DNA of 32,000 bases, taken from positions 1 through 32,000 of the forward strand of contig JAFVFD010000004.1 of the NCBI GenBank assembly GCA_017475605.1. Reading direction: 5' to 3'. Both the position numbers and the translations under genes were made by a program. Each line of letters starts with the position of its first letter. Position 1 is the first letter of the stretch. The notes below the pieces were generated by a model, which saw only the letters and a program-made list of their open reading frames with translations, had not been told where the DNA came from and did not search any database. Shown here piece after piece: positions 14,996-26,563 of this stretch. Origin of the DNA: Alphaproteobacteria bacterium. Its GTDB lineage: Bacteria > Pseudomonadota > Alphaproteobacteria > Rs-D84.

Positions 14996-15164
14996 TTTTG
15001 TATAAATCCGAATCGTTTTTTTACAAAAAGACAACACAAAAACACATTTTGTGCGACATATACCGATTCCGATTCGGTCTGTAATGCGCGGAATATTTAC
15101 CTTTTTAAAAGTAAAGCAAAAAATTAAAAAAAATTATTTTTTATATATTGTTAGAAAAGCCTAA

Positions 15165-15213
15165 ATACTATATATTGTTATCAAAATAACAAAACAGACA
15201 CTATATGTTGTGT
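15165..15213. promoter_or_regulatory. Proximal tandem NrdR boxes upstream of nrdD
   Basis: ATACTATATATTGTTA at 15165..15180 and ACACTATATGTTGTGT at 15198..15213, with starts 33 nt apart, 26 nt before the nrdD ATG. They match the NrdR box consensus acaCwAtATaTwGtgt, which typically occurs as a tandem pair before nrd operons. Confidence 0.6.
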
Positions 15214-15238
15214 TTTTTGACAAAAAAGGGTTAGTCAA

Positions 15239-17278
15239 ATGTCTGAAGCAAACGATAACGTTCCAACAATGCCAAAGTTATCTACCAAGATGACGGTGGC
15301 ACAAAAGCGCAGTGGTGAAACGGTACCATTTGATGCAATCAAAATATATAATGCTATTAAAAAGGCTGTGGCCGTTACGGCTGAAATAGATGATGCCAAG
15401 GTTGTCGAAATAACCCAGGCCGCACTTAACAAGATTGATGAAAAATATGCCGGCAAAACCCCAAAGGTTGAAGAAATCCAGGAAGCCGTTATCGAGGCTT
15501 TGATGGATGCCCGCGCATATAAAACGGCTGAATCATATATTATATATCGTCAAAAACGTTCTGAAATTCGTGATTCGTCGGTTGATGCGGTCGAAGTTAT
15601 CGAAGGCTATGTCGGCGGTTCAAATTGGCGAATCAAGGAAAACGCAAACATTGGCTATTCAATTGGCGGTTTGATTTTGCGTACATCCGAGCGCGTAACC
15701 GCGGAATATTGGTTAAACCTTTATCCACGCGCGGTGGCCGAAGCACACAAATCAGCGGCAATTCATATTCACGATTTGGGATGGTTGACCGGTTATTGCG
15801 CAGGTTGGTCTTTGCGCGAATTGTTATACGAAGGATTCAATGGGGTTCCTGGCTATTTACAATGTGAACCTGCGCGTCACATGGCGACCGCTGTATCGCA
15901 CATGGTGAACTTCCTTGGGACACTGCAAAACGAATTCGCCGGGGCCCAGGCATTTTCATCGGTTGACACATACCTGGCACCGTACGTCCGCATTGACAAT
16001 ATGTCCTATGCCGATGTAAAGAATGCTATGCAGACATTGGTGTTTAATTGTGCCGTTCCATGCCGTTGGGGAACCCAAACACCATTTATCAATTTTACAT
16101 TTGATTGGACATGCCCAAAAGATTTGCGTGAACAACATCCATTTGTTGGCAAAAAGCAGGTTGATTTCACATATGGCGATTTACAACCGGAAATGGACAT
16201 GATTAACAAGGCATTTTTGGAAGTCATGACCGAAGGCGATGCTATGGGCCGTCCGTTCACCTTCCCTATTCCGACATATAATATCACGCCGGATTTTCCA
16301 TGGAATCACCCAAATGTAAAACCGTTGTTTGATTTGGCGGCAAAATACGGTATTCCAAATTTCCAGAACTTCTTAAATTCGGACCTTAATCCAACTGATG
16401 TGCGTTCTATGTGCTGCAGATTGCGCCTTGACGTACGCGAATTGTTAAAGCGCGGTGGTGGTCTTTTTGGTTCTGCGGAAAAGACCGGCTCAATCGGTGT
16501 GGTAACAATCAATTTGGCGCGCCTTGGCTATACACACAAGGGCGACCGCGAAGGTTTATTCACCGAATTAAAACGTTTATTAGATTTGGGCCGCGATTCA
16601 TTGGAAATCAAACGTCAGATTATATCTAAAAATATGGAACGCGGGCTGTATCCATTTACAAAACGTTATCTGGGTAATTGGAACCATCACTTTTCAACAA
16701 TCGGTGTAAATGGTGCGAATGAAATGGTACGCAACTTTACAGACGACCGCGAAAACATCGCAACACCGTTGGGTAAAAAGTTAGTTTTAGATGTAATGGA
16801 TTTCATTCGTGAAAACCTTGCTAATTTCCAGGAACAAACCGGCAATCTGTATAATCTGGAGGCCACCCCAGCCGAGGGCTGTTCATATCGCTTTGCGAAG
16901 ACGGACAAGAAAAACTTTCCAGATATCATTACCGCCGGCACACCGGATGCGCCATATTACACAAATTCGACCCAGTTGCCTGTGAACTTCACTGACGATC
17001 CGTTCGTGGCATTGGAACACCAGGAAGAATTACAGCGCAAATATACCGGTGGCACGATGTTACATCTTTATATGGGTGAACCGGTATCATCGGGGGACGC
17101 GGCGCAGAAGATTGTACGAACGATATTTGAAAACTATCGTATTCCGTATATGACATTAACTCCGACATTTTCCATCTGTCCAAAGCATGGATATCTGCCG
17201 GGCCGGCATGAATTTTGTCCGAAATGCGATGCAGAAATTGCCGCAAATCAGAACGAAATTAAAACTGCCAACAACTAA
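15239..17278 (+). CDS. nrdD: Anaerobic ribonucleoside-triphosphate reductase catalytic subunit, 679 aa, lacking the C-terminal glycyl-radical motif
   Basis: N-terminal ATP-cone (VAQKRSGETVPFDAIKIYNAIKKA...YIIYRQKR). Class III core motifs SMCCRLRLD and NLEATPAEG. C-terminal Zn-ribbon-like CPKHGY-x9-CPKC. It ends with two tandem TAA codons. Confidence 0.9.
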   Translation: MSEANDNVPTMPKLSTKMTVAQKRSGETVPFDAIKIYNAIKKAVAVTAEIDDAKVVEITQAALNKIDEKYAGKTPKVEEIQEAVIEALMDARAYKTAESYIIYRQKRSEIRDSSVDAVEVIEGYVGGSNWRIKENANIGYSIGGLILRTSERVTAEYWLNLYPRAVAEAHKSAAIHIHDLGWLTGYCAGWSLRELLYEGFNGVPGYLQCEPARHMATAVSHMVNFLGTLQNEFAGAQAFSSVDTYLAPYVRIDNMSYADVKNAMQTLVFNCAVPCRWGTQTPFINFTFDWTCPKDLREQHPFVGKKQVDFTYGDLQPEMDMINKAFLEVMTEGDAMGRPFTFPIPTYNITPDFPWNHPNVKPLFDLAAKYGIPNFQNFLNSDLNPTDVRSMCCRLRLDVRELLKRGGGLFGSAEKTGSIGVVTINLARLGYTHKGDREGLFTELKRLLDLGRDSLEIKRQIISKNMERGLYPFTKRYLGNWNHHFSTIGVNGANEMVRNFTDDRENIATPLGKKLVLDVMDFIRENLANFQEQTGNLYNLEATPAEGCSYRFAKTDKKNFPDIITAGTPDAPYYTNSTQLPVNFTDDPFVALEHQEELQRKYTGGTMLHLYMGEPVSSGDAAQKIVRTIFENYRIPYMTLTPTFSICPKHGYLPGRHEFCPKCDAEIAANQNEIKTANN

Positions 17279-17314
17279 TAAATAACAAAAACAAAAAAAG
17301 AAAGGGGAGAAAAG

Positions 17315-17503
17315 ATGCAAACAGCAACAAACGCACAACGTACACCATGTGAAGTTTTTTCACGTTCAATGGGCTTTATTCGTCCGGTGTCTAATTTTAA
17401 CATTGGTAAATATTCTGAATTCTGCGAAAGAAAAACATTTACCGAACAAAACAGTTTGTCTGCTGGGGCGCGTCATGCTGATTTAATGAAAAAGGCGGCA
17501 TAA
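17315..17503 (+). CDS. Stand-alone glycyl-radical segment of class III RNR, 62 aa
   Basis: EVFSRSMGFIRPVSNFNIGKYSEFCERK matches the NrdD C-terminal radical motif (R-x-x-G-Y/F ... F/W-N-x-G-K-x-x-E ... R). It has its own SD, AAAGGGGAGA. It is in the same frame as nrdD, 36 nt after the nrdD stop. Confidence 0.7.
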   Translation: MQTATNAQRTPCEVFSRSMGFIRPVSNFNIGKYSEFCERKTFTEQNSLSAGARHADLMKKAA

Positions 17504-17507
17504 TACC

Positions 17508-18209
17508 ATGCGTGATATTCAGATTGGTGGGTTGGTTTCATTTACCACAATTGATTATCCCGGCAAATTGGCGGCTGTGCTGTTTTTGGTTGGGTGTCCG
17601 TTGCGATGTGCGTATTGTTCCAATCCACACTTACTGAATGTTGGACCGGGTGAATATGACCCGGAAAAGATTTATCAGTGGTTGCAAACCCGCGTCGGCA
17701 AACTGGAAGCGGTCGTTTTTTCCGGGGGCGAAGCGTTGATGCAGGGCGACGCAACCATTTCTTTTATGCGACGCGTACGTGAATTGGGTTTTGCAATAGG
17801 CCTGCACACGAATGGTTTTTATCCGAAAATGTTGGAACGCGCCGCAGAATTGGTTGATTGGATAGGCCTAGATTACAAGGCCACGCGTGAAAAATATGAA
17901 TCGTTGGTCGGCAACGCAATCGCATACGACAATATGATTCAATCACTGACATTTTGGCAATCGACCGGCAAAGATTTCGAGGTTCGCATAACATGTGATC
18001 CGCGATTTATTGATAAAAGCGATTTAATTGCGATTGTACGCGATTTAAACGCGCGTGGGGTACAAACAGTCGCGATTCAAAAATATATCGCACATTTCGA
18101 AGACGACGCGCATAAAACAACACCTGAAATGCGGGAACAGTTTTTTAATGACCCCGCCCTGCGCGACCAGATTTCCGCCTTGGTTCCCAACACTATTTGG
18201 CGGGAATAA
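17508..18209 (+). CDS. nrdG: Anaerobic RNR activating protein (radical SAM), 233 aa
   Basis: CX3CX2C cluster CPLRCAYC, GGEALMQ, and a position directly downstream of nrdD. Confidence 0.85.
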   Translation: MRDIQIGGLVSFTTIDYPGKLAAVLFLVGCPLRCAYCSNPHLLNVGPGEYDPEKIYQWLQTRVGKLEAVVFSGGEALMQGDATISFMRRVRELGFAIGLHTNGFYPKMLERAAELVDWIGLDYKATREKYESLVGNAIAYDNMIQSLTFWQSTGKDFEVRITCDPRFIDKSDLIAIVRDLNARGVQTVAIQKYIAHFEDDAHKTTPEMREQFFNDPALRDQISALVPNTIWRE

Positions 18210-18235
18210 AAATCCACCCGAAAGGGTGGTTTTTA
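18208..18235. terminator. Bidirectional terminator between nrdG and the convergent 524-aa gene
   Basis: CCACCC-gaaa-GGGTGG hairpin at 18214..18229, flanked by AAAAAT and TTTTTAT. Confidence 0.7.
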
Positions 18236-18236
18236 T

Positions 18237-19811
18237 TTAATTTGCGGAATGTCTGTGAATATATTTTTTTATTCGCCTATTTCGTTGTTTAAGAAATGCC
18301 ATTTCTTTTCTTGCTAAAACACGCCATTCGCGTACATTACTGGGGTAACCAGCAAATCGTTCATCGTCTTTTGTGTTGCGTCTAAGGAATATTTTAACCG
18401 CATACTTTCCACGTTTTTTCTTGACCAAATCTTGCAGCAAGAAAAAATCTATATATTCTTCAAACGTCCCGAACAGATTGAAAAACCAGGCATCCGCACT
18501 TAAAACATTTGTTAATGGTGTCGGGGTGTTTTTATCTTCGTACCAAATACGAATACATTCCATTGTTAAATCTATTCTGTCCGCCAGAACATATATATTT
18601 CCCCTTGATTGATTAACAGATTTCGGATCTTTTGGGAAAATCAGATTGCCACCGATGGTATAAGATTTATGAATATAAGTGTTTTTTCTTTTTTGATAAT
18701 TTCTGTCCTTCTCTAATTTTGTCAGTATCGGCATAATAAAGCGGTTATTGTGATGCGTATATAGATTGACAATGGTGTCCGCCCCCAACCTTTTAGTATC
18801 GTCGCCATTATAGCAAAGATAGTTTTCCATAAACGGCGATTCCGTTAATTTAAAGGGTTTTCCATTTGGCAAATCTTTATTATTCCACAGTAAAAAATGA
18901 TATCTGCGCAACAGTCTAGATTTCAAATCGGGGTCATTGTCAGAATTGTCCGTATTCCATAAATTGATTTCACAATCGTCTGAAAAATCGTGTTTTACAT
19001 CTATATCTTTTAAACACTTACATTGTTCGAACGCATCGCAATTTTTTTTCAGTTCCGCCATTTTTATACCATTTTGTTTTTGTAAATTATAATAAACATC
19101 TCGTACTGCATTTGGCAATTCATCGCCGTTTTTAGCATATTTAAGCGATGCATTTTGCCCGATTATTTTACAACCATTATAATTTCCCCCAAATATTTCA
19201 TATTTAAGTTTACCAATTGCTACTGTCTTTTTTATTGGTAATGTTATATTAAAATATTTTTCCATTTGTTCTTTGGCAGAACGGCCATTTACATAGATTG
19301 CTTCAAATGGCGATTCTGCCATTATTTGTTTCAGCAAACCATAACTGGCCAACGCACGATTTTTTATCAATTCGTTTTCATTCGCCCATGATTTTTTTGT
19401 TGCCCATGGGTATATATCCAGATGCACCAGAGTATCGTTATAATAGGATGCACCGAATAATTTATTCCCCATGTTTTCCATTTTATTGAACCAGTCATAT
19501 GGGTTGTTTTGGAAATATCCAATCAAAGATTCATAAACACATTCTGCATCAGTCTGACTTAACACATCGGTATCCATACACATCAAAGAACCTCTATCAA
19601 CAAATCGTTTATTGGTCCCCGTTAACAAAACACCACTGTTATTTGTAAATTCCAGTCCTGATGGATTGATGCCAATTGTCGCAAAACGCGCCTTTTCCGC
19701 ATTGCCAAAGAAAACCACAGGCACAGATTTTTCCACAATATCCATATTTTCCGGAATCGGATTTTCAAGATAGTTTATAATATATGCCCTTAATTTATTA
19801 CTAATACCCAT
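18237..19811 (-). CDS. Two-domain protein of unknown function, 524 aa (N-terminal half with Mug/UDG-superfamily-like motifs; C-terminal half unassigned)
   Basis: AGGGGG SD 9 nt before the ATG, and 67 nt downstream of the co-oriented ATPase gene. Residues 32-55, VVFFGNAEKARFATIGINPSGLEF, resemble the Mug motif VVFCGINPGLSS. The gene is strikingly AT-rich (12/60 G+C at 18661..18720 by hand count). Confidence 0.7.
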   Translation of the reverse strand: MGISNKLRAYIINYLENPIPENMDIVEKSVPVVFFGNAEKARFATIGINPSGLEFTNNSGVLLTGTNKRFVDRGSLMCMDTDVLSQTDAECVYESLIGYFQNNPYDWFNKMENMGNKLFGASYYNDTLVHLDIYPWATKKSWANENELIKNRALASYGLLKQIMAESPFEAIYVNGRSAKEQMEKYFNITLPIKKTVAIGKLKYEIFGGNYNGCKIIGQNASLKYAKNGDELPNAVRDVYYNLQKQNGIKMAELKKNCDAFEQCKCLKDIDVKHDFSDDCEINLWNTDNSDNDPDLKSRLLRRYHFLLWNNKDLPNGKPFKLTESPFMENYLCYNGDDTKRLGADTIVNLYTHHNNRFIMPILTKLEKDRNYQKRKNTYIHKSYTIGGNLIFPKDPKSVNQSRGNIYVLADRIDLTMECIRIWYEDKNTPTPLTNVLSADAWFFNLFGTFEEYIDFFLLQDLVKKKRGKYAVKIFLRRNTKDDERFAGYPSNVREWRVLARKEMAFLKQRNRRIKKYIHRHSAN

Positions 19812-19878
19812 TTATTATACCCCCTGATGTCCTGTTTTAAAATTATCATACAAAGTAATGGCATATTATGCTACGACT

Positions 19879-21948
19879 TTATTTAGCAAAGCCGATTTTT
19901 GCGTGGGTTGTTTCCCCCTTGACCGATTGTTCGGCGCGCAACATAGATATCAATTCAGATTTATCTGTGATATCCATAATTTCCGCCTTGGACTTTACAA
20001 CGCTAAAATCACCGGGGGCTAATTTAGTAAGGTCTGTAACATCGGCCACTGTAACAACCACCCCAAAGAAATCGTGAAACGCACGCACAACCATTTCCGG
20101 TGTTAAATAATCGTATTTAACCTTGAACGAGAATCGTCGCAGGGATGCCTTGTCCAAAGTATTCATAAGGTTTGTCGTACAAATAAACGGGTATTGCGCC
20201 GCCTCCATCTGGGTCAGCATTTCATTCACACAGCCTATTTCCCAACTGTGCATCGCATGCGACCGGTCGGTTAAAAAACTGTCCGCTTCATCAAATACCA
20301 ATATCGCCTTTTTCGCATTTGCTTCGGCAAAGGCGCGTGCGATATTTTGTTCTGTTTCACCGACAAACGCGCTTTTTAAATCACTGGCCCGTTTCTTTAA
20401 CAGCGGCATTCCCAGCGTTTCCGCCAAATATGTCGCATATGCCGTTTTACCCGTTCCCGGCGCGCCATACAGGCACAACGAAAATCGACGCATATTTTTA
20501 TCTTTGATTTTGTCCGCCAACACCTTTAAATCGGTATCCGTATTTAACAGCGAAACATCAAACGCAACCCCATTGTCATTTTTAATCGCTGGCGCAACCC
20601 CGGTCATCGCCATTGTTAAATTATCCAACGTATATTCAATAATATTTTCATCACCTAAAACCTTGGCATTTTTAACGGCGGTATCAACCAATGCCATTGG
20701 AACATTGTATTTGCCAATCAATTTTTTTAACCTTTCTGGCGACACCCCAAGATTATATTTATCGAACACGCGTTGCCATGCGTTTTGTTTCGCCGCATCA
20801 CCCGGATCAGACATTTTCAATGCAAATGTAAAACGACGAATATATGCCCGGTCCATTGTCCGAATATTATTCGTAATCCAAATAACAGGCTTTTTATTTT
20901 TTTCCAACTTGTTGTTTATATATAACTTGCTGGGGGTATTAACATTAAACGGATTCAATGAAAATACATCTTCGGCTTCGTCAAACAACACGATACTGTT
21001 GGTATCTTGCTTTAATATTGTTTGAACCTGGGCCAGATTGCTTAACCGCGCATCTTTATCGCTTTTTTCTGCATTGGTGGCATATAAATCTTTGCCGATA
21101 TCCGCACAGACTGCCTTGGCAAATTCGGTTTTTCCACACCCCGGTTCACCATACAGCAATATATTTACCCCGACTGTATCCGATTCAGTTGCGTGGCGCA
21201 GTATTTCCTTGATTTTATCAAAGTCATCGGCAATATATTCAAAGTTATTTTTCGTTAATTCTGTTTTAAGCGGTTCGCCCACAATAAGATTTCGCACATC
21301 GCGTGGTGTATCAAAATGCATCCCCAGCAGTTTTTTAAACATTACCGAAAAATCGTTATCACCAAATTTCTGAACCAATATGCCAGATTCAAACAGCGGA
21401 CTGTTTTGCGCCATGGCGCGCTGGATATTTTCAAGTGGCACCCCGGTCAACACCGCCAGGAAATCTTCACTTTCTTCACTCATAATATCGTTGCGCATGA
21501 TAACAAATTCATTTATAACGCGACGCAGCGGTTGAACCCGATTGATAGCCACAAATGCCTGTAAAATCGGCCGGCAATAGTCCGGCAAATAAAATGCATC
21601 ACACAACACATTAAAGTTTTTATCAAATGTTGGTTGCGTAATATCTACGACAAGTTCTGAACGGTATGCGTCCAGTATTTTGGACAAAGTATCCTGTGTT
21701 TTTTTATTTGGGACCATATCACACACGACAACCCTGCCCTGAAGCAGATTTTCCAAAAACACAGATTTACACTCGGTCGACACATGACCGGGCGCATCTT
21801 CTATCAATTTGCGAAAATCAAACCCGAACAAATCTTCGGAATAACGCGCAACGAATCTAAAGAATGTATCATAGTCATTGGGTTCGGCTTCGCCCGCAAC
21901 CAGGTTCTTTAAATAGTACAACGTTATTTGTCTTTCTTTTATGTTCAT
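19879..21948 (-). CDS. Tandem classical-AAA+ ATPase, 689 aa (about 250-aa unknown N-domain plus two AAA modules)
   Basis: AAA-1 has Walker A GEPGCGKT, Walker B IVLFDEAED, sensor VIWITNN and RRFTF. AAA-2 has Walker A GAPGTGKT, FVGETEQNIARAFAEA, Walker B ILVFDEADSF, FICTTNL and SLRRFSF (classical FtsH/Cdc48-like clade). AAGGA SD precedes the start. Confidence 0.85.
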   Translation of the reverse strand: MNIKERQITLYYLKNLVAGEAEPNDYDTFFRFVARYSEDLFGFDFRKLIEDAPGHVSTECKSVFLENLLQGRVVVCDMVPNKKTQDTLSKILDAYRSELVVDITQPTFDKNFNVLCDAFYLPDYCRPILQAFVAINRVQPLRRVINEFVIMRNDIMSEESEDFLAVLTGVPLENIQRAMAQNSPLFESGILVQKFGDNDFSVMFKKLLGMHFDTPRDVRNLIVGEPLKTELTKNNFEYIADDFDKIKEILRHATESDTVGVNILLYGEPGCGKTEFAKAVCADIGKDLYATNAEKSDKDARLSNLAQVQTILKQDTNSIVLFDEAEDVFSLNPFNVNTPSKLYINNKLEKNKKPVIWITNNIRTMDRAYIRRFTFALKMSDPGDAAKQNAWQRVFDKYNLGVSPERLKKLIGKYNVPMALVDTAVKNAKVLGDENIIEYTLDNLTMAMTGVAPAIKNDNGVAFDVSLLNTDTDLKVLADKIKDKNMRRFSLCLYGAPGTGKTAYATYLAETLGMPLLKKRASDLKSAFVGETEQNIARAFAEANAKKAILVFDEADSFLTDRSHAMHSWEIGCVNEMLTQMEAAQYPFICTTNLMNTLDKASLRRFSFKVKYDYLTPEMVVRAFHDFFGVVVTVADVTDLTKLAPGDFSVVKSKAEIMDITDKSELISMLRAEQSVKGETTHAKIGFAK

Positions 21949-21994
21949 GTGTTGTCCTTTTTTGTTATTTCATTTTTATTATGGTATCTTGTCT

Positions 21995-22009
21995 GGACAA
22001 AAATGGTCC
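21995..22009. promoter_or_regulatory. Candidate operator GGACAAAAATGGTCC (copy 1), between the divergent ATPase-operon and WYL-regulator promoters
   Basis: Exact 15-mer also present at 23375..23389. It contains GGAC/GTCC inverted half-sites and lies 47-61 nt upstream of the ATPase ATG. On the minus strand its TTGTCC overlaps a plausible -35. Confidence 0.5.
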
Positions 22010-22018
22010 TTTTTATAA

Positions 22019-22047
22019 TTGCGATTTCATTATTTTGATGATATAAT
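22019..22047 (+). promoter_or_regulatory. Putative sigma70 promoter of the WYL regulator gene (TTGCGA-17 nt-TATAAT)
   Basis: TTGCGA at 22019..22024 and TATAAT at 22042..22047, 10 nt downstream of the candidate operator. Confidence 0.5.
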
Positions 22048-22076
22048 TGTAAAAAGCACAGAAATCGGGGGTAAAA

Positions 22077-23141
22077 ATGCGTAAAAACTTTGCCAGAACC
22101 CATATCATGATTGACTTAATTACCATGCTTCAAGTTAACCCAATGACCGAGCAGGAAATTAAGCAGTTTTTATACTCGCAATACCGGGCCAGGCACCTTT
22201 TACGTCGTGGCACATACGAAATAAGCGACAAAACCGTCCAACGTTGGCTTTCCGATATAAAAAAGGAATATCCCGGTTGCCTTACCAAAGAAGGCGAAGA
22301 CCCCGAAACCGAAAAACCCAGATACCAATTATACATTGATGATTACCCCGCAGTGATTGAAGAAACCGAATTACAGGCCCTGCACAACGCAATCAAGCGC
22401 ATTTCCAATGACCCAAATGCCCGGGCGACATTGGGACTTTTAGAGGCAAAATTGTGGAACCGCTTTCAAACCGTCATGAAACACAAATCAACAAATGCCG
22501 CCACATACTATCGCGAATTAAATGAATCAGATATGCTTATCAATTCGGAAATGGTTGTGGTCGGCCCCCGCGCCCGATTTGACATTGACCCGAATATAAA
22601 AAAGACCATAGACAAGGCAATCGTAAAATCTGAAAAAGTTATCATTGAATATCATGGCGCAAAACGAACAATTCGACCAATGGGTGTGTTTTACGGCGAC
22701 AACAATGTATATCTGGTTGCGTTTGCGGAAAAAGATGGCAAACCGGTTGACACGACCCCATGGACATACAGATTGTCTGATATTACCGATGCCCGCAACA
22801 CACGCCAAAGATTCCCCAGCGACCCGACATTTTCAATAAAAGATTATACAAATAAAATGTTCGGGGTGTACAACGATCGTAACATATACGATATTGAATG
22901 GCTTATTGACAAGTCCGTTGTGCCCGAGGCTAAACGTTACACATTCCACCCGTCCCAGGGGGATTTTATCGATAACCCAGATGGTTCCGCGACCCTGCGT
23001 ATGCGTTGTGGCGGGCTGGATGCGATTTGTTCCCACCTGTTCCAATGGAACGGCAAAATCACACCCGTTGCCCCCGCCGAATTGGTCGCACGATATCGCG
23101 AACGGTTAAAAAACACATTAGCAACATTACCCGCGAAATAA
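22077..23141 (+). CDS. WYL-domain transcriptional regulator (wHTH-WYL-C-terminal extension; BrxR/CapW-like), 354 aa
   Basis: N-terminal wHTH (MIDLITMLQVNPMTEQEI...DKTVQRWLSDI). WYL-type core (VIIEYHGAKRTIRPMGVFYGDNNVYLVAFAEKDGKP...TYRLSDITDA). GGGGG SD precedes the start. Confidence 0.75.
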   Translation: MRKNFARTHIMIDLITMLQVNPMTEQEIKQFLYSQYRARHLLRRGTYEISDKTVQRWLSDIKKEYPGCLTKEGEDPETEKPRYQLYIDDYPAVIEETELQALHNAIKRISNDPNARATLGLLEAKLWNRFQTVMKHKSTNAATYYRELNESDMLINSEMVVVGPRARFDIDPNIKKTIDKAIVKSEKVIIEYHGAKRTIRPMGVFYGDNNVYLVAFAEKDGKPVDTTPWTYRLSDITDARNTRQRFPSDPTFSIKDYTNKMFGVYNDRNIYDIEWLIDKSVVPEAKRYTFHPSQGDFIDNPDGSATLRMRCGGLDAICSHLFQWNGKITPVAPAELVARYRERLKNTLATLPAK

Positions 23142-23145
23142 ACCG

Positions 23146-23328
23146 CTATCTTGAAAAAAGAAAGCGTCCGCGTTCATCATAAACCGTTGTAATATTACCA
23201 ACCCGAACACTTACGGTTGAATCATTATATCCAACCAGTGTCCCGGAAAGAGTACATTTGAATTCACCGCGTGTACCGTATACAGTTACGATGTTATTGC
23301 CGGTTTGTTTTACAAGTCCTATTGACAT
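23146..23328 (-). CDS. Small beta-rich protein with an internal repeat, 60 aa
   Basis: AAGGA SD at the same spacing as the ATPase gene. The 5' region is paralogous to that of the ATPase operon. Internal repeat: NIVTVYGTRGEF / NITTVYDERGRF. Confidence 0.55.
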   Translation of the reverse strand: MSIGLVKQTGNNIVTVYGTRGEFKCTLSGTLVGYNDSTVSVRVGNITTVYDERGRFLFSR

Positions 23329-23374
23329 GGCATATCCTTTTTTGTTTCTGCATTTACATTATTACATGCCCCGC

Positions 23375-23389
23375 GGACAAAAATGGTCC
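23375..23389. promoter_or_regulatory. Candidate operator GGACAAAAATGGTCC (copy 2), upstream of the 60-aa ORF
   Basis: Identical 15-mer at the identical distance (47-61 nt) from the start codon as copy 1. It is followed by an extra half-site, AGGACAAAAAA. Confidence 0.5.
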
Positions 23390-23455
23390 AAGGACAAAAA
23401 AGAAAAAACAAAAAATACCCATTCGGGCATTTATACATCTAATTTCTAAAACAAT

Positions 23456-23484
23456 TTGTCAAAAACATCAATATCTATTATAAT
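23456..23484 (+). promoter_or_regulatory. Putative sigma70 promoter of mcrBC (TTGTCA-17 nt-TATAAT)
   Basis: TTGTCA at 23456..23461 and TATAAT at 23479..23484, 41 nt before the mcrB ATG. Confidence 0.55.
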
Positions 23485-23525
23485 GTTCAATATATAATTC
23501 AACCACAACAATAGGAAATGTTGTT

Positions 23526-25472
23526 ATGAACCAAGACAAACTTTCAACTTTATTATCGTTGTATAAAGAACATTTTTCAACAAACTGGGAAAAAGAAAAT
23601 TATAAATGGGTTGCTGTCAAACAATTCCAAGACAATTGGGACATCGATGCGACAGATTTCTATACCATGCTGGATAACAGTTTAAAGGAAACAGACAATC
23701 TTTTAACCAGCGCAGGTTTTTTCCCAAAACTTATGATTTTGCGTTTTGCTGAAAAATATCCGTCACAGGTACGCAAAATGTTTCGTACTTTATTTGACGA
23801 AACAAAACCACTTGCTGGGCGCATCAAATCTTTCCAGGAATCATCTGATAAATTGATGGATTCATACGGCCAAGCCGGACATCACTACCAAAACGAAAAT
23901 ACAATCAGTATATATTTGTGGCTGCGTTATCCGGAAAAGTACTATATTTACAAATACAAGGTATGCAAAAATGTGATTTCGTTGTTGGATGCGCCGTATA
24001 AAATAAAAAAAGGCGAATCCTTTGACAATTTAACATCTTGTTTCGCCCTGTACAACGATATTCAAGAAGTTATGTTACGCGACAATGATTTAAAGACAAT
24101 CCTGCGTGAACATATCGGCAAAAATCATTACAAGGACACTAAATTGCACACAGCCGTATCGGATTTTTGCTTCTTTATAACAAAACAAACACAAACAACA
24201 GATGACGAACAAAAATCTTCGCACACATCTGGTGGTAAAAACTATTGGTGGTTAAACGCAAATCCAAAGATATGGCAATTTTCAACTGTTGCTGTCGGCC
24301 AAGAAGAAAGTTATACCGTATATAACGAAGGCCACCCCAGACGAATACACCAAAACTTTTTGGACGCAAAACCCGGCGATATTGTTATCGGATATCAGGC
24401 ATCACCAACAAAACAAATAACCGCCATATGCGAAATTACCAGATCTCAAGATGGAAATAATCTGTATTTTAAAAAAACGCAAGATGTTGATACACCTGTT
24501 GACTACAAAACCTTGCAAAATATGCCTGAACTGTCCAATATGCAGTTTTTCCAAAACCCCAACGGCAGTTTATTCAAATTAACACAAGAAGAATACGAAG
24601 CAATCATGCGAAAAATAAATAACACCACATATACCAAACAAGACTTCTTAAACGAAGTGTTTATGACTGAAGAAAAATACGACGATATCGTAGCCTTGCT
24701 TGAAAGAAAAAAGAATATTATTTTACAGGGCGCACCAGGGGTTGGAAAAACCTATGCCGCCAAACGTTTAGCCTATTCCATAATCGGCCAAAAAGATGAA
24801 TCTCGCATAAAAATGGTACAATTCCACCAAAATTATGCGTATGAAGACTTTGTCCTGGGATACAAACCAAACGGAAATGGTTTTGAATTAAAGACAGGTA
24901 TCTTTTATAACTTTTGTACCGTCGCCGCACAAGATCCGGACCAACCGTACTTCTTTATTATTGATGAAATTAACCGCGGTAATTTAAGCAAGATTTTTGG
25001 TGAATTGTTAATGATGATTGAACCAGAATATCGTGGCAAGTCGGTAACTTTGGCATATACCGACGAACCGTTTATCGTCCCACGTAATGTATACATTATT
25101 GGTATGATGAATACCGCCGATCGCAGTTTGGCATTAATTGACTATGCCCTGCGCCGTAGATTCGGTTTTGTGGGTATGGAACCAGGTTTTGATTCGGTTG
25201 GGTTTCAAAAATATTTATCAATGAATCAAAAACTTGCTCCATTAGTGGAAGCGATACAGACAATAAATCAAGACATCGCAAAAGATCCGTCTTTGGGGCC
25301 AGGATTCTGTATCGGACACAGTTATCTTTGTCCGACCATGGGTTCCGACAAAGCTGTAAATATTGAATCTATTATTACATACGATTTAATTCCACTTATC
25401 GAAGAATACTGGTTTGATAATGACAGCAAAAAGAGCCAACATATAAATACTCTAAAAGAACTGCTGAAATGA
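23526..25472 (+). CDS. mcrB: McrB-family GTPase subunit of a type IV restriction system, 648 aa, with extra N-terminal domains
   Basis: The C-terminal half has McrB signatures: GAPGVGKT, VQFHQNYAYEDFVLGY, FFIIDEINRGNLSKIFGELLMMIE, YIIGMMNTADRSLALIDYALRRRF. The middle (about residues 240-360) is PUA/EVE-like: NYWWLNANPKIW...GDIVIGYQASPTKQITAICEI. Confidence 0.9.
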   Translation: MNQDKLSTLLSLYKEHFSTNWEKENYKWVAVKQFQDNWDIDATDFYTMLDNSLKETDNLLTSAGFFPKLMILRFAEKYPSQVRKMFRTLFDETKPLAGRIKSFQESSDKLMDSYGQAGHHYQNENTISIYLWLRYPEKYYIYKYKVCKNVISLLDAPYKIKKGESFDNLTSCFALYNDIQEVMLRDNDLKTILREHIGKNHYKDTKLHTAVSDFCFFITKQTQTTDDEQKSSHTSGGKNYWWLNANPKIWQFSTVAVGQEESYTVYNEGHPRRIHQNFLDAKPGDIVIGYQASPTKQITAICEITRSQDGNNLYFKKTQDVDTPVDYKTLQNMPELSNMQFFQNPNGSLFKLTQEEYEAIMRKINNTTYTKQDFLNEVFMTEEKYDDIVALLERKKNIILQGAPGVGKTYAAKRLAYSIIGQKDESRIKMVQFHQNYAYEDFVLGYKPNGNGFELKTGIFYNFCTVAAQDPDQPYFFIIDEINRGNLSKIFGELLMMIEPEYRGKSVTLAYTDEPFIVPRNVYIIGMMNTADRSLALIDYALRRRFGFVGMEPGFDSVGFQKYLSMNQKLAPLVEAIQTINQDIAKDPSLGPGFCIGHSYLCPTMGSDKAVNIESIITYDLIPLIEEYWFDNDSKKSQHINTLKELLK

Positions 25473-26563
25473 TCAAAGATAAAAGTATTTATATCAAAAA
25501 CATATACTATATGCTGGGCTATGCCTTTCAGGCCATTCAGCATATGGGATATACCCAAATGGCCACAGAACAATTCGACAATATTCATGATTTGTTTGCG
25601 GCCATTTTGGGAAATGGTATGGTACACCAGATAAAACACGGCATATACAAAGAATATATCAATCATAATGATGATTTGCCGACCGTTCATGGAAAAATAA
25701 ATATATACAACACAATCCGAAATAAAATTTTACATCGTCAGGTTATAAATTGTGATTTTGACGAACTCTCTGAAAATAACATTTATAATCAAATTATAAA
25801 AACGGTCATTGATTTATTTATAACGCACAACAATGTAACCCAGAAGCACAAGACCGCATTAAAACAATGCCTTTTGTTTTTAACCAATGTTGATACGGTT
25901 GATTTAAAATCTGTACGCTGGAACGATATAAAGTTTCACAGAAATAATCAGACTTACAGAATTTTAATTAATATATGTTATCTTACATACCGCGGATTAA
26001 TACAAACAACCGAAAACGGACAAGAAAAACTTGCATCTTTTATGGACGAGCAAACTATGTGCCGACTGTACGAAAAGTTTATTTTAGAATATTATAAACA
26101 AGAATTTCGTGGTGTTTTAAAATCAGAATCTTCGCAAATTCCGTGGGGTCTGGACGAAGAAGACGATTCTGGGTTATTGCCTACAATGCAAACAGATATC
26201 ACATTGTCAAAAGAAAGCGCAAACTTAACCGATATTCTGATTGTAGATGCTAAATATTATACTCATATTTTATCTAATAAAAAATATTCCGATAATGACA
26301 GCCAATTAAAGATTCATTCTGGTAACCTTTATCAGATTTTTACATACGTAAAAAACAAGGAATACGAATTGACACATAAAAACATTTCCCATCGTATTTC
26401 TGGAATGTTATTGTATGCCAAAACAGATGAAGCGTTTTTACCCAATAATTCTTATATGATGAGTGGCAATCGCATAACCGTATCCACCCTTGATTTGTAC
26501 CAGCAATTCGATTGCATAAAAGAACAATTAAACACGATAGTAACACAACATTTTAATTTATAA
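25469..26563 (+). CDS. mcrC: McrC nuclease subunit, 364 aa
   Basis: ATGA overlap with mcrB. PD-(D/E)xK-type motif ...MQTDITL...LIVDAKYY in the C-terminal half. Size and position are typical of McrC. Confidence 0.8.
   Translation: MIKDKSIYIKNIYYMLGYAFQAIQHMGYTQMATEQFDNIHDLFAAILGNGMVHQIKHGIYKEYINHNDDLPTVHGKINIYNTIRNKILHRQVINCDFDELSENNIYNQIIKTVIDLFITHNNVTQKHKTALKQCLLFLTNVDTVDLKSVRWNDIKFHRNNQTYRILINICYLTYRGLIQTTENGQEKLASFMDEQTMCRLYEKFILEYYKQEFRGVLKSESSQIPWGLDEEDDSGLLPTMQTDITLSKESANLTDILIVDAKYYTHILSNKKYSDNDSQLKIHSGNLYQIFTYVKNKEYELTHKNISHRISGMLLYAKTDEAFLPNNSYMMSGNRITVSTLDLYQQFDCIKEQLNTIVTQHFNL

Follow-up and report, generated by a model that had tools for sequence, protein, structure and literature searches.

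Where does a class III (anaerobic) ribonucleotide reductase carry its radical glycine when the nrdD gene ends ahead of it? The question is raised by a locus on contig JAFVFD010000004.1 of an Alphaproteobacteria bacterium (lineage Rs-D84; assembly GCA_017475605.1), whose positions 1 to 32,000 were analysed and are called the window here. Positions 15100..18400, read together with their listed open reading frames (ORFs), give the gene order nrdD–small ORF–nrdG on the + strand. The nrdD gene (15239..17278, +) encodes a large chain of 679 aa and ends in tandem stops, TAA TAA (17276..17281, +), the second of which (17279..17281) is in frame. An A-rich spacer of 36 nt (17279..17314, +) leads to a small ORF of 62 aa (17315..17503, +), whose ATG at 17315 shares the nrdD frame and has a Shine-Dalgarno sequence, GGGGAG (17304..17309, +), 5 nt on its 5' side. 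The small ORF holds EVFSRSMGFIRPVSNFNIGKYSEFCERK, the glycyl-radical loop, and nrdG (17508..18209, +; 233 aa) starts 4 nt past its stop. On rereading the sequence and the ORF list, the coordinates, stops, Shine-Dalgarno sequence, spacer, shared frame and motif given in the initial annotation all hold. The locus very probably encodes a class III reductase of two obligate chains, which would have arisen by fission of the gene for the usual single catalytic chain.

The large chain has an ATP-cone (residues 22-109), also matched by Pfam, and an NxN flap, ENAN, with Asn at residues 135 and 137. The catalytic barrel is confirmed by Pfam NRDD (PF13597, 3.6e-170), NF006126 (1027 bits, cut-off 548) and TIGR02487 (465 bits, cut-off 326). 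Within the aligned barrel, motif and alignment alone place the finger loop at SMCCRL (residues 390-395), which is predicted to hold the thiyl radical cysteine. The zinc ribbon, C647-P-K-H650 … C660-P-K-C663 (17177..17227, +), is complete on this chain and aligns with C-x-x-H … C-x-x-C of Thermotoga maritima NrdD (4COI/4U3E) and with C-x-x-C … C-x-x-C of Prevotella copri NrdD (8P23). A search of the 679-aa chain for R-x-x-G-[YFW], G-[YF]-x-R-P and [FWY]-N-x-G-K found none of them, in agreement with the initial annotation, which had seen no alternative R-x-x-G-Y/F motif there. The radical glycine motif is off the barrel chain and on the 62-aa chain instead. The classical radical domain is itself divided, as the zinc ribbon remains on the large chain. 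Because the large chain has no glycine loop, the small protein is the only radical carrier of the adjacent enzyme, and judged from these motifs it would be an obligate partner, not a spare.

The two chains cover the NrdD models in complementary fashion. Of the 562 positions in Pfam NRDD, 1-529 fall to the large chain and 532-562 to the small one; of the 684 in NCBIfam NF006126, 4-654 fall to the large chain and 649-683 to the small one. This complementarity is far beyond chance, and the profile matches bear out the earlier identification of the 62-aa ORF as the C-terminal radical motif of NrdD. After a variable leader, the small chain has the core R9-T-P-C12-E-V-F-S-R17-S-M-G20-F-I-R-P-V-S-N-F-N-I-G-K32, followed by a helix and a conserved tail ending in KKAA. 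The Gly20 codon lies at 17372..17374. With an E value of up to 1, Pfam gave no match to the Gly_radical domain of the pyruvate formate-lyase type; the Pfam matches were NRDD and a weak, presumably spurious one to Lipoprotein_10 (E 0.0062). The Protein Data Bank returned no match to a narrow small-chain profile, and the sole match to a broad one was the C-terminus of T. maritima NrdD (E 0.0035).

The small ORF is under strong purifying selection. Its 247 close homologue clusters encode 57-92 aa, and the longer ones are start-codon over-extensions into the 3' end of nrdD in another frame. Over 54 alignable codons, the proportion of nonsynonymous differences (pN) is 0.088 and that of synonymous differences (pS) 0.64, with a median ratio of nonsynonymous to synonymous rates (dN/dS) of 0.066. 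Gly20 is invariant though it is written by four different codons, and across 76 diverse homologues C12, R17, G20, P24, K32, E35 and R39 are invariant. Cys12 (17348-17350), eight residues before the radical glycine, is also invariant in fused relatives of the subfamily, and T. maritima NrdD lacks an equivalent. A role for Cys12 in completing the zinc site across the chains was considered and rejected, since the T. maritima-like C/H/C/C set is already complete on the large chain. The tail, N-S-L-S-A-G-x-R-H-x-D/E-L-M/L-K-K/R/M-A/V-A (17450-17500), is strongly conserved in the Enterousia group, where it always ends in A/V-A; among 140 diverse homologues, 12 end in -AA against about two expected. 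This tail could act as a tag for proteases or as a motif for docking.

Close relatives keep the two genes apart. One genome per species was scanned, which gave 212 genomes with a relative, and the best 80 were examined; all of these are Candidatus Enterousia or other gut or rumen Alphaproteobacteria, and the window is thereby assigned to the same group. The motif-bearing open frame is just 61-123 codons long in 80/80 relatives. The upstream nrdD ORF was delimited in 78 of the 80, which with the window makes 79 loci. In every one of them nrdD and the small gene are separate, the adjacent large chain has no glycine loop, and there are no further disruptions, so the decay of the locus that a survey of relatives might have revealed is absent. 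The small ORF encodes 59-63 aa and always starts with ATG, and GGGAGG, GGGGAG or AAGGAG precedes this ATG in 78/79 loci. The spacer after nrdD measures 28-53 nt, the frame offset between the two genes is 0, 1 or 2 in 34, 24 and 21 loci, respectively, and nrdG follows the small ORF with a gap of 2-10 nt or an overlap. Tandem stops occur in just 2/79 loci and are therefore incidental, no part of the design. The initial annotation had argued from the tandem stops and the dedicated Shine-Dalgarno sequence together; the second argument gains from the relatives, whereas the first is lost.

The split extends well beyond this group. A HMMER search of 1.8 billion representatives yielded 1179 (clustered at 50% identity) that match the small chain at E up to 0.001. 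Among the best 150 of these, the matches closest to the query, lengths are 47-121 aa, all but one protein start with Met, and a leader of 2-58 residues precedes a shared core, R-x-x-C-E-[VI]-[WFY]-[TS]-R-x-[MV]-G-[YF]-x-R-P-x-x-x-[FWY]-N-x-G-K-x-x-E-x-x-x-R. A profile search matched at least about 8000 clusters (90% identity), the top 120 of which are all 54-93 aa long. Split loci with the order nrdD–small gene–nrdG were found in Cupriavidus necator H16 (plasmid pHG1, 676 + 66 aa, the 66-aa product being WP_011154154, with an unusually long spacer of 142 nt, L090 3305-3446), the megaplasmid of Cupriavidus metallidurans CH34, the megaplasmid of Ralstonia solanacearum (685 + 58 aa, overlapping by ATGA, hence a spacer of -4), a plasmid of Bradyrhizobium ottawaense (678 + 63 aa) and Paracoccus ferrooxidans (581 + 60 aa). 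A metagenome bacterium has the order nrdR-nrdD(676)-small(59)-nrdG(231), and another contig has large(570)-small(69)-activase. Other named members of the small-gene family come from Rhodocyclaceae, Rubrivivax, Paraburkholderia, Candidatus Uhrbacteria and Selenomonadaceae, and 148/161 matching plasmid or chromid records belong to genera with a verified split representative. The break point is constant, 10-40 residues past the last zinc-ribbon cysteine and ahead of the R-x-x-C-E motif, and the H16 large chain is shortened like that of the window (NF006126 positions 3-659 of 684).

Split systems vary in other respects too. Some of their large chains have just 570-581 aa (L088 1714-3459, L093 52-1764) and probably lack the ATP-cone; if so, the split exists with and without the regulatory domain. 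One distant split system (L082 1951-3981) has C-P-Y-P-H in place of C-x-x-C as the second half of the ribbon, and a desulfoferrodoxin gene lies 3' of its nrdG.

The small ORF is thus an independently translated protein under selection, and the initial annotation's view of a genuine two-polypeptide arrangement is upheld by the 79/79 separate loci, the three frames, the dN/dS of about 0.07 and the same split in distant taxa. A mistake of sequencing or assembly, or a pseudogene in decay, with one continuous nrdD as the true gene, would be in keeping with the single-chain nature of characterised NrdDs and the shared frame in the window, but 79 independent species-level assemblies are split and intact in three frames under that same low dN/dS, and the genes are likewise split on completed replicons from cultured members of Cupriavidus, Ralstonia, Paracoccus and Bradyrhizobium, which makes this explanation hardly credible. 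Joining of the two parts as they are translated, whether by readthrough of the stop, by frameshifting or by ribosomal bypass, would likewise give a single-chain NrdD, and the short, A-rich spacer and common frame of the window are what it would call for. However, all three frame offsets are common, the spacer ranges from -4 nt in Ralstonia to 142 nt on pHG1, the window itself has two successive stops, and an ATG with a strong Shine-Dalgarno sequence is kept across loci. No conserved recoding signal could suit all of these arrangements, and joining is very improbable. Thus, the variable frames and spacers, the ribosome-binding site and the low dN/dS exclude sequencing error and pseudogenisation as well as readthrough, frameshifting and bypass.

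How the split arose is suggested by one-chain forms, which were recovered with a chimeric query that combines the zinc ribbon and the loop. This query returned many fragments in which ribbon and loop are 5-15 residues apart on one chain; some of these are named as Actinomyces, Dermabacteraceae, Propionibacteriaceae, Planctomycetes or candidate-phyla bacteria. In loop sequence they hardly differ from the split forms. The ribbon of T. maritima NrdD is likewise C-x-x-H … C-x-x-C, and YMRIVGY comes six residues after it. Because fused relatives occur in the same subfamily, the split is attributed to gene fission within the NF006126-type subfamily.

The small gene also occurs without its partners in phages. 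One Selenomonadaceae homologue adjoins a phage lysozyme gene, and neither nrdD nor nrdG is nearby. When viral contigs were scanned, 576 proved to hold a relative, and the best 80 of these (L094-L173) were examined over 4 kb on each side. Lone copies include L091 3231-3428, L092 3501-3698 and L136 3968-4141. No nrdD-like or nrdG-like gene lies within 4 kb in 76/80 contigs, although nrdD may sit elsewhere in these phages; nrdD is directly upstream of the small gene in 2/80, and an nrdD-like piece is about 3 kb downstream in another 2/80. The viral small proteins are intact and have ribosome-binding sites. An endolysin gene is within 2.6 kb in 31 viral loci, mostly upstream of the small gene, a holin gene is upstream in 21, and an integrase gene is just downstream in several. 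A frequent order of genes is holin - endolysin - x - small gene - integrase. This lysis-to-integrase location is a typical cargo position of temperate phages. PHROGs lists the family as phrog_4132, of unknown function. A tblastn search against phage genomes gave just two weak matches, and the phage copies lie in uncultivated viral contigs. In 7/80 viral loci (e.g., L111 1722-3976, L160 1207-2256), the small gene is directly downstream of two radical-SAM/SPASM genes that resemble peptide maturases (phrog_1802; PapB/SCIFF-like below cut-off), and no NrdG-type activase is present at these loci. The lone phage copies suggest that the small chain can be supplied in trans.

Such copies bear on whether the small protein is a spare only, which would rescue an oxygen-cleaved, complete NrdD encoded elsewhere while the 679-aa protein acts independently. 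GrcA/YfiD from Escherichia coli and phage T4 Y06I do this for pyruvate formate-lyase (PMC8683613), the lone phage copies resemble spares, and the window is part of a genome. On the other hand, the adjacent large chain is conserved (1027 bits, NF006126) and lacks the radical glycine at all loci examined, which would leave it inert if unpartnered. In addition, the gene order and the tight coupling to nrdG are invariant. A role as a spare alone is therefore improbable.

The initial annotation had likened the small ORF to GrcA/YfiD, and this parallel stands in part. Like GrcA/YfiD and Y06I, the small chain is a small stand-alone glycyl-radical-loop protein, presumably activated by the activase of the parent enzyme and acting in trans inside a large barrel, and phage-borne copies exist in both cases (PMC8683613). 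However, GrcA has about 127 aa and is homologous to the C-terminus of pyruvate formate-lyase, not to NrdD. GrcA is also a spare, used after oxygen cleavage of an enzyme with a radical domain of its own, whereas the small chain is encoded in the operon as the sole carrier.

The obligate two-chain enzyme can be given a working scheme based on established knowledge of NrdD and pyruvate formate-lyase. The 679-aa chain would supply the ATP-cone, the NxN flap, the ten-stranded barrel with its finger-loop cysteine and the zinc ribbon, and the 62-aa chain, made from its own ribosome-binding site, would supply a beta-hairpin with Gly20 and the C-terminal tail. NrdG and S-adenosylmethionine would abstract a hydrogen from Gly20. 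The hairpin would insert in the barrel beside the finger-loop cysteine, to which the radical would be passed at the start of turnover and from which it would be regained at the end, while the C-terminal helices of the small chain probably lie on the surface. Oxygen cleaves the chain of glycyl radical enzymes at the glycine. Because the cut falls at the radical glycine, the loss would be limited to 62 residues, and the damaged peptide would be resynthesised and possibly swapped. The radical loop would thereby be a cheap, possibly exchangeable subunit. This oxygen benefit is a possible selective reason for the split.

Several points weigh against an obligate two-chain enzyme or its proposed advantage. 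The enzyme is known here from genes and sequence alone, and the window is 32 kb of a genome in which a second, complete NrdD may be encoded elsewhere. The small ORF scores below the curated cut-offs (21 bits against 26.2 for Pfam NRDD). The AlphaFold model of the isolated small chain, built from an alignment of 108 sequences, is of low confidence (mean predicted local distance difference test, pLDDT, 62; predicted template modelling score, pTM, 0.24), and its secondary structure alone was used. In favour of the two-chain reading, the model puts Gly20 at a hairpin turn between strands 15-18 and 21-24, followed by two helices, which would fit a peptide that folds on its partner. Finally, facultative anaerobes such as E. 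coli make use of fused enzymes too, and fission may thus be neutral.

A neutral fission is a serious rival as to why the split exists. The two-chain enzyme would be real and its pieces would reassemble, with no role in exchange, repair or regulation. Fused and split forms with near-identical loops coexist in one subfamily, and the split class II reductase NrdJa/NrdJb shows that reductases tolerate fission (PMC5704485). Against neutrality, the split is kept across a very large and old family with a strong ribosome-binding site of its own, and phages have repeatedly captured the small gene alone, which is hard to explain unless supply in trans is useful. Neutral fission nevertheless keeps a substantial chance, short of an even one. 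Another possibility is that the small protein is a radical cofactor that can diffuse and be exchanged. Activated by NrdG off the enzyme, it would then dock and be replaced after oxygen cleavage, and copies from temperate phages would sustain the anaerobic deoxynucleoside triphosphate supply of the host. This proposal is tentative, and we would not call it probable. The initial annotation's idea of a replaceable module has indirect support from the lone phage copies and is not proven by them.

The two-chain reductase shares most features with the single-chain NrdD/NrdG systems of E. coli, phage T4 (1H79), T. maritima (4COI/4U3E) and P. copri (8P23). Shared are the ATP-cone and NxN flap, an NRDD barrel with its finger-loop cysteine, a zinc ribbon and the R-x-x-G-[YF] … N-x-G-K motif, together with NrdR operators and a radical-SAM activase encoded next to the reductase. 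Unlike canonical NrdD, the glycine loop and C-terminal tail are on a separate 62-aa polypeptide, and the break falls between ribbon and loop. Class II NrdJa/NrdJb of Pseudomonas aeruginosa similarly has a C-terminal module on a separate downstream gene that must reassemble with its partner (PMC5704485, PMC4520616). The class II piece, however, is a cysteine-rich domain of 150-220 aa that delivers reducing equivalents, whereas here the radical cofactor itself is separate. The radical source differs too, being adenosylcobalamin in class II. NrdJa/NrdJb is therefore best taken as an analogy and not as a sign of membership, as both the enzyme class and the module differ. Benzylsuccinate synthase (BssABC) and 4-hydroxyphenylacetate decarboxylase (HpdBC) also combine a large catalytic chain with small chains, but their radical glycine stays on the large catalytic chain and their small subunits are unrelated iron-sulfur or structural proteins. 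To our knowledge, all characterised glycyl radical enzymes have the radical glycine on the catalytic chain.

The surroundings of the three genes in the window look like those of a single operon. The nrdG product matches TIGR02495 (1.8e-53, 180.8 bits, cut-off 131), a radical-SAM activase of the NrdG2 type. Ahead of nrdD, a consensus scan found a promoter-like site, TTGTTA and TATATT with a 17-nt spacer (15148..15176, +), which is a pattern match only. Two palindromic candidate NrdR boxes, ATACTATATATTGTTA (15165..15180; 13/16 matches) and ACACTATATGTTGTGT (15198..15213; 15/16 matches), lie 33 bp apart from centre to centre on the 5' side of nrdD. Both were compared with acaCwAtATaTwGtgt, which we take to be the NrdR operator consensus. 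The promoter-like -10 hexamer overlaps box 1. A bidirectional intrinsic terminator, CCACCCGAAAGGGTGG with a T run (18214..18237), closes the operon 3' of nrdG. A scan of the spacer between nrdD and the small ORF found no promoter or terminator signal, so the locus has the look of one NrdR-controlled three-gene operon. Directly 3' of it, positions 18237-26563 hold a cluster that resembles a defence island, with a DUF6994 protein (524 aa), a double AAA ATPase (689 aa), a WYL-WCX regulator, an EVE-domain McrB-like AAA_5 protein and McrC.

Databases already hold the small gene. RefSeq calls it nrdD or 'anaerobic ribonucleoside-triphosphate reductase' in Bradyrhizobium, C. necator H16 and Paraburkholderia, and other records call it hypothetical (e.g., Ralstonia, Paracoccus). 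No NCBIfam model dedicated to it was found. Published reviews and phylogenies, whether of reductases or of glycyl radical enzymes, treat the radical domain as the C-terminal end of NrdD and give class II NrdJa/NrdJb as the sole split. In the genome paper on C. metallidurans, NrdDG is given as Rmet_5137 and Rmet_5139, with the gene between them omitted; the paper also refers to the nrdDG locus on pHG1 of C. necator H16 as indispensable for complete denitrification (PMC2864759). That denitrification-linked locus is split, which offers an in vivo hint. No description of a split class III reductase was found in open-access full-text literature, where searches brought up just the split class II enzyme and GrcA; this is no proof of novelty. 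The two-chain class III reductase thus appears to be widespread and already called by annotation pipelines, yet undescribed.

The finding matters for how glycyl radical enzymes are studied and annotated. It is still disputed how the loop, buried in the barrel, gets out to the activase, and a natural, free loop protein of about 60 residues is an experimental handle on activation, docking and oxygen damage. The split occurs in the tractable C. necator H16, R. solanacearum, Paracoccus and Bradyrhizobium, and is thus testable at once. Surveys that equate a protein of about 680 aa with 'NrdD' miss an essential third gene, as in the C. metallidurans paper. The GrcA study validated two spare-part proteins, both for pyruvate formate-lyase, and noted that others may exist (PMC8683613); the small chain answers its question of whether stand-alone radical modules extend beyond that enzyme. 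The lone phage copies may represent a novel type of auxiliary metabolic gene. If the small protein is indeed an exchangeable cofactor, 'spare part' logic would for the first time be seen beyond pyruvate formate-lyase, and the reductase would be the first of the glycyl radical enzymes to have its radical loop on a natively separate peptide.

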